From NCBI GenBank assembly GCA_964408825.1, contig CAYPAU010000001.1:76789-140788 (forward strand): 64,000 nt of DNA, given 5' to 3'. This stretch comes from an uncultured Gammaproteobacteria bacterium. Lineage in GTDB: Bacteria > Patescibacteriota > Microgenomatia > Levybacterales > UBA12049. The notes beneath the pieces are model-generated. The model was given only the letters and a program-made list of their open reading frames with translations, was not told the DNA's origin and searched no databases. Shown here in pieces: positions 2,397 through 46,126 of the stretch. The position numbers and the translations under genes were made by a program. The number at the start of each line of letters is the position of its first letter. The stretch's first letter is position 1.

Positions 2397-3215
2397 ATGA
2401 AGATAATAGGAACAGGACTTACGGGACTTGTGGGGTCCCGAGTTGCAGAGCTTTTAAAAGATAAATATGAATTTGTAAATTTTAGCAGAAGAAGTGGTAA
2501 TGACATAACTGACAAGAATGAAGTTTTTAATTTTCTAGGATCATCAGACGCGCCCCTCGTAATTCATCTTGCAGCAAAAACAGACGTAGATGATTGCGAA
2601 AAGGATAAAGAAGAAGATAGTAAAATATTGGGATATAAAGATATTAAGGAACAGGAAGAGGAATTTAAAATAAAGAAAACGGCTTGGGCAGTTAATGTTT
2701 TAGGAACAAAAAATATTGTTGACGCATGCAGAAAAACTAAGAAAAAATTAATATACATATCAACCGACTTTGTCTTCGACGGGACAAAAGATTTTTACAA
2801 AGAGGAAGATACCCCAAACCCGATTAATTGGTATGGAAAAACAAAATATGAAGGGGAGAAACTGGTTTCTTCTTCGGAAATTCCGAATGCGATAATAAGA
2901 ATTTCGTATCCCTATAGAGCAAAATTTCCCAAAAAAGATTTTATAAGAGTTTTAATTGATCTTTTGGCAAATGGTAAATCTTTAAGAATGGTAAGCGATC
3001 AGATTATTACACCGACATTTATAGACGATCTTGATTTTGTTTTCGACTATTTTCTTAAAAACCAAACGGAAGGTGTTTTTCACGCATGCGGAGGGGACTC
3101 TCTGACTCCTTTTGAAATAGTAAATAAAATTGCTGAAGTTTTTGGTTTTAATAAAAATTTAATATCAAAAACAATAAGGAAAGAATTTTTCAGAGGAAGA
3201 GCAGAACGCCCTTAA
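2397..3215 (+). CDS. rmlD: dTDP-4-dehydrorhamnose reductase-like protein (RmlD). The annotated ORF ends at an in-frame TAA; the same frame stays open to 3308 (see findings).
   Basis: RmlD-like N-terminus MKIIGTGLTGLVGSRV and an acidic low-complexity insertion. The in-frame continuation ends in an ATGA overlap with ugd. Confidence 0.6.
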   Translation: MKIIGTGLTGLVGSRVAELLKDKYEFVNFSRRSGNDITDKNEVFNFLGSSDAPLVIHLAAKTDVDDCEKDKEEDSKILGYKDIKEQEEEFKIKKTAWAVNVLGTKNIVDACRKTKKKLIYISTDFVFDGTKDFYKEEDTPNPINWYGKTKYEGEKLVSSSEIPNAIIRISYPYRAKFPKKDFIRVLIDLLANGKSLRMVSDQIITPTFIDDLDFVFDYFLKNQTEGVFHACGGDSLTPFEIVNKIAEVFGFNKNLISKTIRKEFFRGRAERP

Positions 3216-3304: not shown

Positions 3305-4594
3305 ATGACAATAACTTTCATCGGCCACGGATATGTTGGACTTGTTACAGCATCCATCTTTGCAGATTTAGGCAATAAGGTTTGGGTGATTGGCAGGGAC
3401 CCTAAGAAAATAAAAGATCTTAAAAAAGGAAAATCTCCATTCTTTGAACCCGGACTTGAAGAACTTGTAAAACGAAATATTAGAGCAAAGAGGCTTTTTT
3501 TTACGCTTGATTATAAGCCTTCAGTTTCGGATTCAGACATAGTTTTCATAGCCGTTGGAACTCCACCGAATAAAACAGGCGATGCAGAACTTCTTGGAGT
3601 TTTCGCCGTTGCGGAAAATATTGGAAAAAATCTGAAAGGTTATACGGTTATTGCTACAAAAAGCACGGTTCCTCCCGGCACAAATAAAAGAATAAAACAA
3701 TTGATAGATGAAGTTAAGCCTCATGAAGCAACATTCGACATCGCATCGGTTCCTGAGTTTCTTCGTGAAGGAACAGCGATTCAAGACACCTTGGCGCCCG
3801 ACAGGATTGTTATAGGAACCGAAAATAAAAGAGCCCAGAATTTGCTTATTGAACTTCATAAGCCTATCGACAGACAGTTTGTTCTAACAAATCTTGAGAC
3901 AGCGGAGCTCATTAAATATGCATCAAATTCATTTTTGGCCACTAAAATTTCATTTGCAAATGCGATAGCAAAATTATCAGAACTAGTCGGAGCAGATGGT
4001 ATTGCCGTTATTGAAGGACTAGGTCTGGACAAAAGGATTGGCAATGAATTTCTTGCTCCAGGTCCTGGCTACGGCGGAAGCTGTTTCCCAAAAGACGTAA
4101 AAGCCCTAATTGCAATCGCCAAGAATTATGATTATAGCTTTGCTTTACTTGATGAGGTAGAAAAAATTAATGGACAGGCAAAGCGCGATATCGTTAGAAA
4201 AGCAAGAAAATTGCTGACAGATTTAAACAAAAAGACCATTGGAATATTGGGTCTTTCCTTCAAACCCAATACCGATGACATGCGGGATGCTCAGTCTGTC
4301 GATATTATAGAAATGTTAAAGCAAGAAAGAGCAAGTATTAAAGCTTTTGACCCTCAAGCTATGGCAAATGCAAAAAGAATCATAACTAACGTTGAATTTT
4401 GCGATAACGTTTACGATGTAGCCAAGGGATCAGATGCACTTATTATTATTACAGATTGGAACGAATTTAAAGAACTTGATTTTAAAAAAATAAAAAAACT
4501 CATGAAAAACCTTATTATTATCGATGGAAGGAATATTTATAATCCTGAAAAAATGAGGGAATTAGGTTTCACCTATGTTGGAATTGGAAGATGA
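3305..4594 (+). CDS. ugd: UDP-glucose 6-dehydrogenase
   Basis: ITFIGHGYVGLVTA NAD-binding N-terminus, GGSCFPKD catalytic Cys motif, 429 aa. Confidence 0.85.
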   Translation: MTITFIGHGYVGLVTASIFADLGNKVWVIGRDPKKIKDLKKGKSPFFEPGLEELVKRNIRAKRLFFTLDYKPSVSDSDIVFIAVGTPPNKTGDAELLGVFAVAENIGKNLKGYTVIATKSTVPPGTNKRIKQLIDEVKPHEATFDIASVPEFLREGTAIQDTLAPDRIVIGTENKRAQNLLIELHKPIDRQFVLTNLETAELIKYASNSFLATKISFANAIAKLSELVGADGIAVIEGLGLDKRIGNEFLAPGPGYGGSCFPKDVKALIAIAKNYDYSFALLDEVEKINGQAKRDIVRKARKLLTDLNKKTIGILGLSFKPNTDDMRDAQSVDIIEMLKQERASIKAFDPQAMANAKRIITNVEFCDNVYDVAKGSDALIIITDWNEFKELDFKKIKKLMKNLIIIDGRNIYNPEKMRELGFTYVGIGR

Positions 4595-26999: not shown

Positions 27000-27593
27000 A
27001 TGAATGGGTTTGAAATTTTTGCAAAACCCTTTTGGGTAAATTTCCTTATACTTATTCCAATTTCACTGTTTTTATATTGGAGAAAACATAAGCTTAACAT
27101 TTCCGGAAAAACTCTTCTGTATGTCCTTATATTTGGAATTGCTTTTGGTGTAATTGAGGCAAGTGTGGTCATATACCTTCGGGCCGCAACAGGACTCCTT
27201 CCGGGATATGAGGGGACCGTGTTTGATATCTGGAGAGAAAGTTTCGAGATTTATTATAATCAGGAACTTTTAGAAAAGCAGCTTCCTCCAAGTCTCCTGA
27301 CTTATGAACTGATTCGTGAAGTCGCTACAATGTTTATGCTCTGGGCAGTTGCTTTTATTGCCGCTCAAAAGTGGAAAGAGAGAGTCGCATTATTCTTTTG
27401 GGCTTTTGCAGTTTGGGATGTTGTTTATTACATACATCTTTGGCTTACTGTTCGTTGGCCACAAAATTTAACTACTCCCGACGTTTTATTCCTAATTCCA
27501 GAGCCGTGGTTTAGTCAAGTCTGGTTTCCACTTCTTGTCAGTGGTCTGACAATGTTTGGCATTTTTGTAAATAGAATGGAGAGACCAAAATAG
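27000..27593 (+). CDS. Hypothetical polytopic membrane protein
   Basis: 197 aa with about 5 predicted transmembrane segments. Confidence 0.4.
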   Translation: MNGFEIFAKPFWVNFLILIPISLFLYWRKHKLNISGKTLLYVLIFGIAFGVIEASVVIYLRAATGLLPGYEGTVFDIWRESFEIYYNQELLEKQLPPSLLTYELIREVATMFMLWAVAFIAAQKWKERVALFFWAFAVWDVVYYIHLWLTVRWPQNLTTPDVLFLIPEPWFSQVWFPLLVSGLTMFGIFVNRMERPK

Positions 27594-27619
27594 AACGCTC
27601 TCACCTCAAGTATTCTCGT

Positions 27620-27648
27620 TTGTCCGAGCTTTATAAATTTGGTAAAAT
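27620..27648 (+). promoter_or_regulatory. Sigma70-like promoter for tRNA-Gln (TTGTCC-17-TAAAAT)
   Basis: Its -10 end lies about 10 nt upstream of the mature tRNA 5' end. The tRNA-Glu promoter shares the same GGTAAAATAA -10 context. Confidence 0.4.
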
Positions 27649-27658
27649 AAGCCTACAT

Positions 27659-27729
27659 TGCTGGGTCATCTAACGGTAGGATAGCGGACTCTGAATCCGT
27701 TCATCTTGGTTCAAATCCAAGCCCAGCAG
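27659..27729 (+). tRNA. tRNA-Gln (anticodon CUG)
   Basis: Hand-folded: acceptor TGCTGGG/CCCAGCA with U1-A72 and G73, D-loop with GG, anticodon loop CUCUGAA, T-arm CTTGG-TTCAAAT-CCAAG. No encoded CCA. Confidence 0.8.
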
Positions 27730-27730
27730 C

Positions 27731-28109
27731 TATCCTTCGCCAAGGCTACGGAATAGCATGCAATTACGAAGCTGAGAGCGAAGTATTACATGCACTATTG
27801 TTATGTATTGTTGAGTTCAAAATCTCATATTTTTTATTTTGGTTCAACAAATAACTTGAAAAGCAGATTAAAATCGCATAACAATGGGAGTATTAAATCA
27901 ACTAGACCACATAGGCCTTGGGATTTAATTTGGTACGCCGGATTCAAAACCGAAAAAGAAGCAAGAGATTTTGAGCTTTATCTAAAATCTGGTTCAGGAA
28001 GATCGTTTGCCTACAAAAGATTAATTTCCGTAACGTTGAAGAAGGATTTCTCTGATGGGCGAAGAAGTAGTCCGAAGTCTAAGACGTAGGATACCAAGCC
28101 CAGCAGCTA
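27731..28109 (+). mobile_element. About 360-bp GIY-YIG cassette inserted at the tRNA-Gln 3' end. The 16-bp direct repeat CCAAGCCCAGCAGCTA sits at 27717-27732 and 28094-28109; imperfect inverted ends are TATCCTTCGCC and GACGTAGGATA.
   Basis: Exact 16-nt duplication of the tRNA 3' end 362 bp downstream. The second copy has no upstream T-arm, so it is not a tRNA. Confidence 0.5.
27790..28089 (+). CDS. GIY-YIG nuclease family protein (YhbQ/UPF0213-like, 99 aa)
   Basis: YCYVLLSSKSHIFYFGSTNNLKSRLKSHN is a GIY-YIG motif, followed by the family's downstream Arg/Glu helix. Confidence 0.75.
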   Translation: MHYCYVLLSSKSHIFYFGSTNNLKSRLKSHNNGSIKSTRPHRPWDLIWYAGFKTEKEARDFELYLKSGSGRSFAYKRLISVTLKKDFSDGRRSSPKSKT

Positions 28110-28190
28110 CGACGGGTAACCTTGTTAACTAGTTATTTTTGTTATTCTTAGAGAAGGCGGAGATAAAAAAGGATGGGGAAAAATAAAGTA

Positions 28191-28610
28191 TTAAAATACT
28201 CTTCGCCTTCCTGCGATTCTTTCTTGAATACTTTCTCTAAAGTCAGGAGAATCTCGAAAAACAACTGCGCTTTGGATGACACCTTCTATTTGAAGTCCCG
28301 TAACCTTACTGTCTCCTAATTCTTGAATTTCTAAATATACTTGCTGTTGTTGGGGAGACATATGATAAAAGGCTGGATCATGCTTCCATCTTGGTGCGCC
28401 ATATTGCACTAATCTTAAGTCTTCCGGAAATATATCTGGAACTGACTGTAGAATTTTTATAATCTGGTTACTGGAAGCAAAGCTCACTCTCCTTATTCTA
28501 GAACGTCCCCAACGAAAACAAAAAGCTTCCAGAATTTCACTTCTTGGATTTCCTAACTGATCTAACAGACTTGGTGTTTTCTCACCTGTCTCGTGTTCTC
28601 CTTGCACCAT
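28191..28610 (-). CDS. Hypothetical protein (139 aa)
   Basis: ORF with somewhat elevated GC, immediately downstream of the tRNA-Gln cassette. Confidence 0.35.
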   Translation of the reverse strand: MVQGEHETGEKTPSLLDQLGNPRSEILEAFCFRWGRSRIRRVSFASSNQIIKILQSVPDIFPEDLRLVQYGAPRWKHDPAFYHMSPQQQQVYLEIQELGDSKVTGLQIEGVIQSAVVFRDSPDFRESIQERIAGRRRVF

Positions 28611-45672: not shown

Positions 45673-45745
45673 GGCCCCATCGTCTAGTGGCCTAGGACGG
45701 CAGGTTCTCATCCTGCAAACCCGGATTCGACTTCCGGTGGGGTCA
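45673..45745 (+). tRNA. tRNA-Glu (anticodon CUC)
   Basis: Hand-folded: acceptor GGCCCCA/TGGGGTC, D-arm TCGTCTAGTGGCCTAGGAC typical of tRNA-Glu, anticodon loop UUCUCAU, T-arm CCGGA-TTCGACT-TCCGG, discriminator A. Confidence 0.8.
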
Positions 45746-46126
45746 CTTCGGCAAGCTCAGTGCAAGCACTTCTATGCTAAAGGCTTCAGAGTGGTTCATC
45801 TATATGCTTCTTTGCGATAATAAAACTTTCTACACGGGGATTACTGATAATTTTATCGAGAGGTTTATAAAACATATAAATAAACAGAATATATCTACAA
45901 AAAAGTTTTTAAAAATTAAATTTGTTTATGCAGAAAAATATCGAGACAAATATCAAGCGGCAAGGAGAGAAAAACAGCTCAAAGGTTGGTCGCATGCAAA
46001 GAAGCAGTTAATGATTGACGGAAAACTTGGAATTAATACTTGTACTGAGTTTGTTGAAGATCTCATTTCGAAGCTGAATCTTTGAGTTTATTCCGAGCCT
46101 GCCGAGGAAACTTCCGGTGGGGTCAC
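45746..46126 (+). mobile_element. About 360-bp GIY-YIG cassette at the tRNA-Glu 3' end. The 17-bp direct repeat ACTTCCGGTGGGGTCAC sits at 45730-45746 and 46110-46126; the 13-bp inverted ends CTTCGGCAAGCTC and GAGCCTGCCGAGG match at 11 of 13 positions.
   Basis: Exact 17-nt duplication of the tRNA 3' end 380 bp downstream; inverted repeats sit immediately inside the duplications. Confidence 0.5.
45774..46085 (+). CDS. GIY-YIG nuclease family protein (YhbQ/UPF0213-like, 103 aa)
   Basis: WFIYMLLCDNKTFYTGITDNFIERFIKH (compare E. coli YhbQ [28 protein letters not shown]) and ARREKQLKGWSHAKKQL. Confidence 0.75.
   Translation: MLKASEWFIYMLLCDNKTFYTGITDNFIERFIKHINKQNISTKKFLKIKFVYAEKYRDKYQAARREKQLKGWSHAKKQLMIDGKLGINTCTEFVEDLISKLNL

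Follow-up and report, generated by a model that had tools for sequence, protein, structure and literature searches.

Within the 64,000-nt window (the whole stretch of DNA that was analysed), an intact tRNA-Gln gene is followed by a compact insert that carries one open reading frame (ORF) for a small GIY-YIG nuclease and is bounded downstream by a displaced copy of the tRNA 3′ end (Table 1). Both ARAGORN and Rfam identify the tRNA, the former ending it at 27730 (with the anticodon given as ctg) and the latter at 27729. The repeated sequence is the 16-mer CCAAGCCCAGCAGCTA, which occurs exactly twice in the 64 kb; 100 dinucleotide-preserving shuffles, with two mismatches permitted, produced no chance match. 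The first copy spans the 3′ strands of the T stem and of the acceptor stem, the discriminator and then 2-3 nt. A preliminary description of this DNA had placed a tRNA-Gln gene before a duplicated 16-mer, and both the gene and the exact repeat are confirmed. Two details of its geometry have to be corrected: the copies are separated by 361 nt (377 nt start to start) rather than by 362 bp, and the repeat is composed not of 16 tRNA nucleotides plus two but of tRNA nt 61-73 plus three trailing nucleotides, or of nt 61-74 plus two if the ARAGORN end is adopted. Neither ARAGORN nor Rfam calls a tRNA at the second copy, which is, as had been proposed, not a tRNA. An E-value scan of 27500-28300 with Rfam returned the tRNA as the sole match and no ribozyme, intron or other RNA family. 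Since no group I ribozyme core surrounds the ORF and the tRNA is uninterrupted, the ORF does not represent an intron-encoded endonuclease, nor the insert a tRNA intron. The window holds a single copy of the element, as its left-end core motif (module A, Table 1) occurs once. The other tRNA gene of the window, tRNA-Glu(CTC) at 45673-45746, lacks both an element and a module A motif, and its 3′ end is not repeated downstream.

Table 1 Features of the tRNA-Gln locus and, in the last row, of a second small GIY-YIG family found in other genomes. L-numbers (L001 onward) denote retrieved genome loci.
Feature	Position	Strand	Remarks
Promoter-like site	27620..27648	+	TTGTCC-17-TAAAAT, TG-extended; consensus match only
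tRNA-Gln(CUG), intact target gene	27659..27729	+	ARAGORN; Rfam RF00005, 57.8 bits
Direct repeat copy 1	27717..27732	+	tRNA nt 61-73/74 plus 2-3 nt
Left terminal hairpin module A	27729..27757	+	Core motif ATCCTTCGCCAAGGCTACGGA at 27732-27752
Element body between repeat copies, 361 nt	27733..28093	+	Empty versus occupied orthologous sites
ORF, 99 aa	27790..28089	+	Stand-alone SLX1/UPF0213-type GIY-YIG domain, C-terminal helix, basic tail
Module B, inverted copy of A within the ORF	28026..28047	-	22 nt, 82% complementary
Right terminal hairpin module C, inverted diverged copy of A	28066..28095	-	AGTAGTCC-GAAG-[GTC TAA GAC]-GTA-GGATACC
Direct repeat copy 2, displaced partial tRNA 3′ end	28094..28109	+	
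Small GIY-YIG family at tRNA 5′ ends	L018 2572-2898; L029 2587-2906; L077 ~2600-2915; L011 755-1086		

The ORF product matches the Pfam family GIY-YIG (PF01541) with an E-value of 1.5e-18 and 67.3 bits, against a cutoff of 22.6, over profile positions 1-74 of 78. No further Pfam domain was found in the 99 residues, the remainder being a helix and tail of ~25 aa. No NCBIfam family scored above its own cutoff (the match to a group-I-intron endonuclease reached 15.6 bits against a cutoff of 56). In an alignment of 25 family members, the window protein included, 33 columns are invariant, and Y5, Y16, G18, R26, H30 and E62, the residues expected to be catalytic, are invariant throughout. An AlphaFold2 model built from 25 homologues has a pLDDT of 83 and the secondary-structure order E-E-H-H-E-H-H. 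Searched with phmmer against the PDB, the protein matches the UPF0213 protein BH0048 (1zg2; 3.6e-4) and the SLX1 nuclease domain (6.9e-4), with no match to I-TevI or UvrC. Foldseek with the AlphaFold2 model returned a probability of 1.0 for both Slx1 (31-36% identity) and BH0048, and lower values for I-TevI (0.5) and UvrC (0.6). The earlier assignment to the YhbQ/UPF0213 type thus agrees with the hidden Markov model search and with the nearest structures. Given this kinship with Slx1 and BH0048 and the lack of a second domain, the protein is, judged by its sequence, a bare GIY-YIG domain of the structure-specific type, unlike I-TevI and the Seg enzymes, which carry a DNA-binding module. Enzymatic activity is predicted from the conserved catalytic residues and the fold.

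The imperfect inverted ends noted previously, TATCCTTCGCC on the left and GACGTAGGATA on the right, are present and form part of longer hairpin modules that are conserved in the family. Module A follows straight after the tRNA with the form (N)ATCYTTCGCYAARGCTWCRGAAT(N')GC, with tRNA nt 73-74 contributing to the two pairs at its base; for a tRNA 3′ end of ..AC rather than ..GC, the partner in the hairpin is GT. In an ungapped alignment of 74 copies, 96.6% of the cells are paired and compensatory changes are seen in seven of the ten pairs, a result that none of 500 shuffles equalled. The N/N' pair is C-G in 27 copies, A-U in 18 and U-A in 10. Module C has the general form GG-T-N-(n)-TCC-GAAG-[variable inner hairpin]-CGWAG-GGA-N'-A-CC, and its basal GG pairs with the first two nucleotides (CC) of repeat copy 2. 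The terminal hairpins therefore overlap the repeats by 2 nt on each side. Compensatory variants of module C include ggtAgTCC/GGAtAcc, ggtCtTAC/GTAgAcc and ggtGaTAC/GTAcAcc; the same DNA encodes the last residues of the protein (SSPKxKx*) together with the stop codon. Among non-Watson-Crick pairs, G.T and A.C number 14 and 7 in hairpin A and 5 and 7 in hairpin C; the modules may act as RNA or as single-stranded or cruciform DNA. The internal module B coincides with codons ~80-86 of the family (consensus S-V-A-L-A-K-D), and its place in the ORF is constant across nearly all loci. Identity between A and the reverse complement of B averages 18.25 of 21 positions within elements versus 16.56 of 21 between elements (as high in 0 of 5000 permutations), and the set of A/B co-variations contains independent singleton co-changes. 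For the window transcript, RNAfold predicts a long-range A:B duplex (z=-3.3).

The termini vary in some loci. In L048, L051, L022 and L036 the leader from hairpin A to the start codon contains tandem repeats of ~30-40 nt, and a nested extra hairpin (..atccgtcgctactacgtagctatggaatagc..) is inserted inside module A in L019, L027 and L032. Extra C-like hairpins, some with a partial 14-mer, stand between the stop codon and the final repeat in L003, L005, L006, L013, L026, L043, L048 and L057, and may be remnants of earlier insertions at the same tRNA.

Homologues of the nuclease form 371 clusters with 67-82% identity, essentially all from the Candidate Phyla Radiation (CPR)/Patescibacteria and each ~100 aa long. 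A profile search of 1.84 billion representatives gave 8 clusters at E<=1e-30 and 1,967 at E<=1e-10, with lengths mostly of 63-145 aa among the best 150 of these clusters listed. Viral contigs yielded no relative of the nuclease. We examined 81 elements from CPR/Patescibacteria genomes, for which 80 genome loci were retrieved. Most of the 80 have a tRNA on the same strand whose end lies 25-229 nt (median 40) before the start codon. The GIY-YIG ORF is the sole ORF family common to all loci, and no integrase, transposase, reverse transcriptase (RT) or other shared gene was found within ~3 kb in the 81 loci. The elements are accompanied by no tyrosine or serine integrase, Cas1 casposase or PolB, and contain no transposase of the DDE, HUH, serine or tyrosine kinds, the GIY-YIG domain being their only ORF. 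At 18 loci ARAGORN and Rfam detected no tRNA upstream; some of these have an intron-containing or truncated tRNA-Asn. In L028 and L057 the tRNA-Asn upstream of the element contains a group I intron and is missed by ARAGORN. A group-I-intron-like insert after the anticodon region is seen in the tRNA-Asn of L011 (~1078-1395), L028 and L057, and the Rfam scan at gathering thresholds misses these genes as well; the inserts agree with the 35/36 introns reported for Patescibacteria (PMC13011429). The left flank of one "tRNA-less" element (L012, 2590-2632) folds as an acceptor-stem and T-arm minihelix, GTGTCGA...GTTCGAAA...TCGACAC, that has no D or anticodon arm, and some other tRNA-less left flanks resemble decayed T-arm/acceptor remnants.

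The direct repeat is a property of the family. At 46 loci the DNA past the ORF repeats the 3′ end of the tRNA exactly over 10 nt or more (mode 14); these loci are distributed over Gln(CTG) (11), Gln(TTG) (10), Asn(GTT) (9), Ser(GCT) (6), Ser(GGA) (4), Ser(CGA) (3) and one each of Trp, Tyr and Leu. The arrangement of tRNA, small GIY-YIG ORF and partial tRNA 3′ repeat for which a search had been suggested thus recurs with six tRNA identities, the repeat matching each host tRNA. It starts at nt 61, straight after the T loop, in 35 of the 46 loci and one nucleotide later in seven more, and ends at nt 73/74 or past the CCA where this is encoded, so that the core repeat of the family is 14 nt (tRNA nt 61-74). 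Its sequence follows that of the local tRNA across nine tRNA species, being for example CCAAGCCCCGCAGC at tRNA-Gln, CCCTCCCTCTCCGC at tRNA-Ser and CCTACCCGGGGAGC at tRNA-Asn, and the DNA between the exact repeats measures 330-557 nt (median 350). When up to two mismatches are allowed, the left 14-mer recurs after the ORF in 53 of the 73 elements with both flanks readable (39 exact), against 4 of 723 in the shuffled null. In 24 control tRNAs that have no element, the longest downstream copy is at most 8 nt. Where the two repeats are mismatched, the right copy can be a genuine tRNA 3′ end from elsewhere: that of L003 equals the end in L014 (Gln), that of L062 the end in L074 (Asn) and that of L026 the end in L041 (Gln). 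The right repeat of L046 is nearer to L023 than to its own tRNA. Because right repeats equal the tRNA ends of other genomes, the repeat can travel with the element. A duplication of fixed length (mode 14 nt) together with the inverted terminal modules A and C constitutes the formal marks of a DNA transposon, here without a transposase. Guide-like pairing between the B-C spacer and the host 14-mer was also considered and is unconvincing, the longest complementary run being on average 4.5 nt for the repeat of the element itself, against 4.1 nt for those of other tRNA types.

Empty and occupied states of one orthologous site could be compared directly. The synteny prfB-ftsE-ftsX-tRNA-Gln(CTG)-element is common to L009, L010 and L061. 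In the occupied loci L009 and L010, the tRNA is followed by the element, the second 14-mer and then the flank GTATCGAGG..GACCGAG. In the empty loci L091 and L092, the tRNA ends in ...GGTTCGAATCCAAGCCCCGCAGC with a single 14-mer and passes directly into accagtcagcgcaGTATCGAGGccGACCGAGatgcc, a flank homologous to the sequence GTATCGAGGaGACCGAGacccc that follows the second 14-mer in L009. This homology indicates that the two states differ by exactly the element plus one 14-mer. At the orthologous locus of L089, also empty, a terminator comes after the tRNA. L089 is the nearest FtsX relative of the occupied L010 (72% identity), and the nuclease is 67-81% identical between genomes whose FtsX proteins are only 36-52% identical. 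The empty site that the preliminary description asked to look for was thus found at orthologous ftsX-tRNA-Gln loci of family members and not in the lineage of the window itself. For the latter no empty site is available because the databases hold no close relatives: the 197-aa protein encoded upstream was found at three metagenome loci only, none with a tRNA after it, and the DUF3179 protein encoded downstream has no relative above 45% identity. The empty orthologous sites and the recurring pattern together support the original view of the locus as the footprint of insertion into a tRNA gene by a minimal nuclease-bearing element.

Other insertions occur at the same tRNA. At the ftsX-tRNA-Gln(CTG) locus of L090 (2790-3125), a third type of small GIY-YIG ORF (2860-3111) begins a few nucleotides past the tRNA with no 14-nt repeat, and the conserved flank GTATCGAGG resumes 15 nt past its stop codon. 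In L093-L096 (2713-4277), the same tRNA-Gln(CTG) is followed by a gene for a 508-aa large serine recombinase on the opposite strand, which makes the 3′ end of tRNA-Gln(CTG) a hotspot for several unrelated elements.

Closely related genomes also differ around the element. L012 and L015 are ~98% identical over 2 kb downstream, and between their elements an identity of 98-99% holds exactly as far as the right repeat extends, while the surroundings are rearranged: a ~57-nt segment has the element on one side in L012 (2400-3420) and on the other in L015 (2700-3900). An additional left-end module stands alone in L015 at 3368-3395, and in L061 a solo left end stands behind the element. Two copies are present in each of three metagenome-assembled genomes (MAGs), namely L029 and L050, L070 and L073, and L003 and L080, and these are 72-86% identical or not alignable.

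A second, distant family of small GIY-YIG proteins (36-44% identity) is inserted at tRNA 5′ ends (Table 1). Its members lie between direct repeats of 13-18 nt that copy the tRNA 5′ end, such as TATACACGGAGAGGTCG in L018 and TTGCGGGATCGTC in L029, and have paired hairpins of their own. The tRNAs of L018, L029 and L077 have mini GIY-YIG elements on both sides. L055 has a distant small GIY-YIG ORF (1767-2012) downstream of a tmRNA gene (1217-1609). Matches to LOOT RNA (Rfam RF03000) lie near the element on the minus strand in L036 (2670-2790, 84 bits) and L045 (4614-4740, 72 bits).

With respect to expression, the promoter scan of the window found a promoter-like site upstream of the tRNA only and none between the tRNA and the ORF start, in keeping with the proposal that the ORF lacks a promoter of its own. 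An own promoter was likewise rejected for the family, as extended -10 or TATAAT-like boxes occur in the leader of only 5-6 of 44 elements, none of them in the window. A terminator-like hairpin between tRNA and ORF is present at one of 44 loci. Transcription of the tRNA and, by read-through, of the element probably starts from the site at 27620-27648, and co-transcription with the tRNA is consistent with both the promoter and the terminator scans. As the element sits between the tRNA and its terminator, expression would come mainly from such read-through.

These results make it likely that 27733-28093 is an autonomous, nuclease-driven miniature mobile element, a member of a family that has spread through CPR/Patescibacteria at the 3′ ends of tRNA genes, where a target duplication of ~14 bp keeps the tRNA intact. 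A precedent for a GIY-YIG nuclease that reads this region is the phage T4 homing enzyme SegB, for which GGTTCRANTCC is the recognition motif in tRNA genes and which cleaves close to the CCA end (PMC2330249). By analogy, the nuclease would recognise the universal T-arm/acceptor region of tRNA genes (GGTTCRANYCC...), as SegB does, and would introduce a break staggered by ~14 nt, with one strand cut near nt 60/61 and the other near 74/75. Each end of the break would then bear the 14-mer and could be joined, by annealing or ligation, to the 14-mers on either side of a resident copy. The 14-mer ends may prime synthesis during repair (copy-in homing) or, should the nuclease cut the borders of the element at these same positions, may serve as cohesive ends (cut-and-paste). 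Host polymerase and ligase would suffice in either case, and the insertion itself would restore the tRNA while producing the repeat. The hairpin modules presumably act as cis sites for the structure-specific nuclease. A staggered break of this kind would account for the host-specific repeats, for the preserved tRNA and for spread that needs no flanking homology, as well as for the universally conserved CC (nt 61-62) and GC (nt 73-74) that are built into the bases of the terminal hairpins. It also predicts occasional foreign right-hand repeats, as are seen in L003, L062 and L026.

More tentatively, and with doubt outweighing confidence, the family may represent a mechanistically new class of autonomous DNA element, in which the same enzyme would make 14-nt staggered cuts both in empty targets and at the borders of resident copies and so generate mutually cohesive ends, with mirror-image mini-families at tRNA 5′ ends. 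In such a system, the only protein of a ~350-bp element, a 99-aa structure-specific nuclease, would act as a "restriction-enzyme-like transposase"; host ligase and polymerase would complete insertion and precise excision, and the ends could also prime synthesis. The conserved tRNA 3′ end, used as the cohesive sequence, would allow the element to cross between very divergent genomes without flanking homology.

Several observations weigh against a mobile element of the kind proposed. In 20 of the 73 elements the right repeat is tRNA-like, and the left flank neither matches it nor lies in a detectable tRNA. The occupied and empty genomes are not close relatives, their FtsX proteins being at most 72% identical, and at any one site the difference may reflect loss rather than gain. 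Copy number is low, at one or two per genome. The protein P0002 was read on 24 contigs, and all five distinct places shown are one gene context with no sign of recent jumps; most copies may therefore be old and vertically inherited. The G.U-type wobble in hairpin A and the predicted A:B duplex allow for a role at the RNA level, which may exist instead of or beside one at the DNA level, and the internal module B is not accounted for by the proposed model. The protein has no recognisable DNA-binding domain, which leaves sequence-specific recognition of tRNA genes unexplained. Finally, we infer the chemistry of insertion, including the stagger and the cohesive or priming ends.

Part of this evidence would also suit a domesticated, immobile nuclease gene linked to the tRNA, with hairpins and a downstream 14-mer that act in the tRNA-mRNA co-transcript; they would then be processing or stability signals, or a decoy for tRNA 3′-end enzymes, kept by selection and not scars of transposition. 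Conservation of the protein is indeed very strong, with intact ORFs and 67-82% identity between distant CPR lineages; genomes hold few copies, and in the one well-sampled lineage the position is stable; U.G pairs are tolerated on the sense strand of hairpin A, the long-range A:B RNA duplex is predicted with z=-3.3, and the right repeat remains tRNA-like where the left flank has decayed. Nevertheless, we regard domestication as unlikely. The same module stands behind nine tRNA species, each time with that tRNA's own 14-mer, and domestication itself does not create a host-specific repeat at each tRNA. Orthologous sites are empty, the distribution is patchy relative to the FtsX phylogeny, the vicinity of the element is rearranged between closely related genomes, with tandem or solo ends, and the region matches no RNA family.

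A classical free-standing homing endonuclease gene, which makes an ordinary double-strand break in tRNA loci free of the element and spreads only via long flanking homology, would turn the 14-nt repeat and the hairpins into accidents of a founding insertion inherited by all copies. This explanation is quite unlikely. The repeat differs with tRNA identity and matches the local tRNA, and was therefore made anew at each target switch; the flanks beyond the repeats are unrelated between most loci, which leaves no long homology for spread between lineages; and the compensatory evolution of the terminal hairpins argues that they are under selection. The protein, moreover, falls in the SLX1/UPF0213 branch and has none of the DNA-binding domains found in the I-TevI/Seg enzymes. 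In its favour, GIY-YIG homing endonucleases are common, SegB targets a tRNA T-arm motif and sits in a tRNA cluster, occupancy of the orthologous site is patchy and the nuclease is better conserved than the host FtsX. Elements with a tyrosine integrase classically leave a duplicated tRNA 3′ end as their footprint, and a large serine recombinase gene occupies the same tRNA-Gln locus in L093-L096, so that the repeat might be an att-site scar or a remnant of a larger integrase-borne island, with the GIY-YIG ORF as leftover cargo. The narrow range of sizes (330-557 nt, median 350, in 46 loci), the same conserved termini adjoining the repeats everywhere and the absence of an integrase or other shared gene within ~3 kb in 81 loci make this origin highly improbable. 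On the grounds of size and of the missing integrase, the alternative offered in the preliminary description, that of a last remnant of a larger element, is rejected.

The miniature mobile element that we favour combines traits of several known systems. In its working it comes closest to free-standing GIY-YIG homing genes such as that of SegB: both have a GIY-YIG catalytic domain and are selfish genes among or beside tRNA genes, and the SegB site is the region that bounds the repeat here. SegB is reported to be much like I-TevI, which is a two-domain enzyme with a DNA-binding domain of its own, and to leave 2-nt 3′ overhangs (PMC2330249). The present protein, in contrast to the Seg enzymes and I-TevI, is a bare 99-aa domain of the SLX1/UPF0213 type. 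SegB is also phage-borne, depends on flanking homology and has neither target duplication nor structured termini, whereas the element described here is found in cellular CPR genomes with a ~14-nt repeat and hairpin ends. With no DNA-binding domain, and with a target duplication and structured termini, it does not fit the structural definition of a SegB-like gene. The targets of casposons extend over the final 4-7 nt of tRNA genes (PMC4046053). Like casposons and other tRNA-targeting integrative elements, the element is inserted at the tRNA 3′ end without destroying the gene and has terminal inverted repeats and a target-site duplication. Those elements, however, measure kilobases and encode an integrase (a tyrosine or serine recombinase, or Cas1 with PolB), as opposed to ~350 bp, no recombinase and a duplication of nt 61-74 here. 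The element thus shares the safe-harbour logic of integrases and casposons at tRNA 3′ ends without their enzymes.

By sequence and fold, the nearest relatives of the protein are SLX1 and UPF0213 proteins (YhbQ, BH0048). SLX1 structures have been solved with branched or flap DNA, which would fit an enzyme that acts on hairpin or cruciform termini. SLX1 itself, unlike the element protein, functions in repair together with SLX4 and contains an additional RING domain. We know of no mobile-element context or tRNA linkage described for SLX1 or UPF0213 proteins, and literature searches gave none. REP/RAYT units (REPtrons) and elements of the IS200/IS605 type likewise place a small nuclease gene between inverted, imperfectly palindromic hairpins that co-evolve with the gene; they differ in using HUH/Y1 transposases, in making no target duplication and in having no tRNA specificity. 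In Penelope-like retroelements, staggered nicks by a GIY-YIG nuclease lead to target-site duplications of more than 10 bp, which resembles the model proposed here, although these elements are eukaryotic, RT-dependent and kilobases long and the present element has no RT. The full-text literature searched gives no description of mini GIY-YIG elements flanking tRNA genes, in agreement with the earlier impression that the element was undescribed; papers outside that set may exist. At ~350 bp, it would to our knowledge be among the smallest autonomous DNA mobile elements.

In practical terms, the elements plant false partial tRNA ends and 100-aa ORFs beside the tRNA genes of MAGs. If the proposed reading is correct, the element would be an unusually small self-contained one, for which a bare nuclease domain and two hairpin ends are enough to persist and spread, and a compact nuclease that reads tRNA-gene structure with a defined 14-nt stagger may be of interest to enzymologists and tool builders. 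Its landing pad would be among the most conserved sequences of the host, the tRNA T-arm and acceptor. It would represent a fourth way of using tRNA genes as safe harbours, beside integrases, casposases and SegB-type homing, and would bear on how genome-reduced CPR bacteria, which have few classical transposons, still host selfish DNA.

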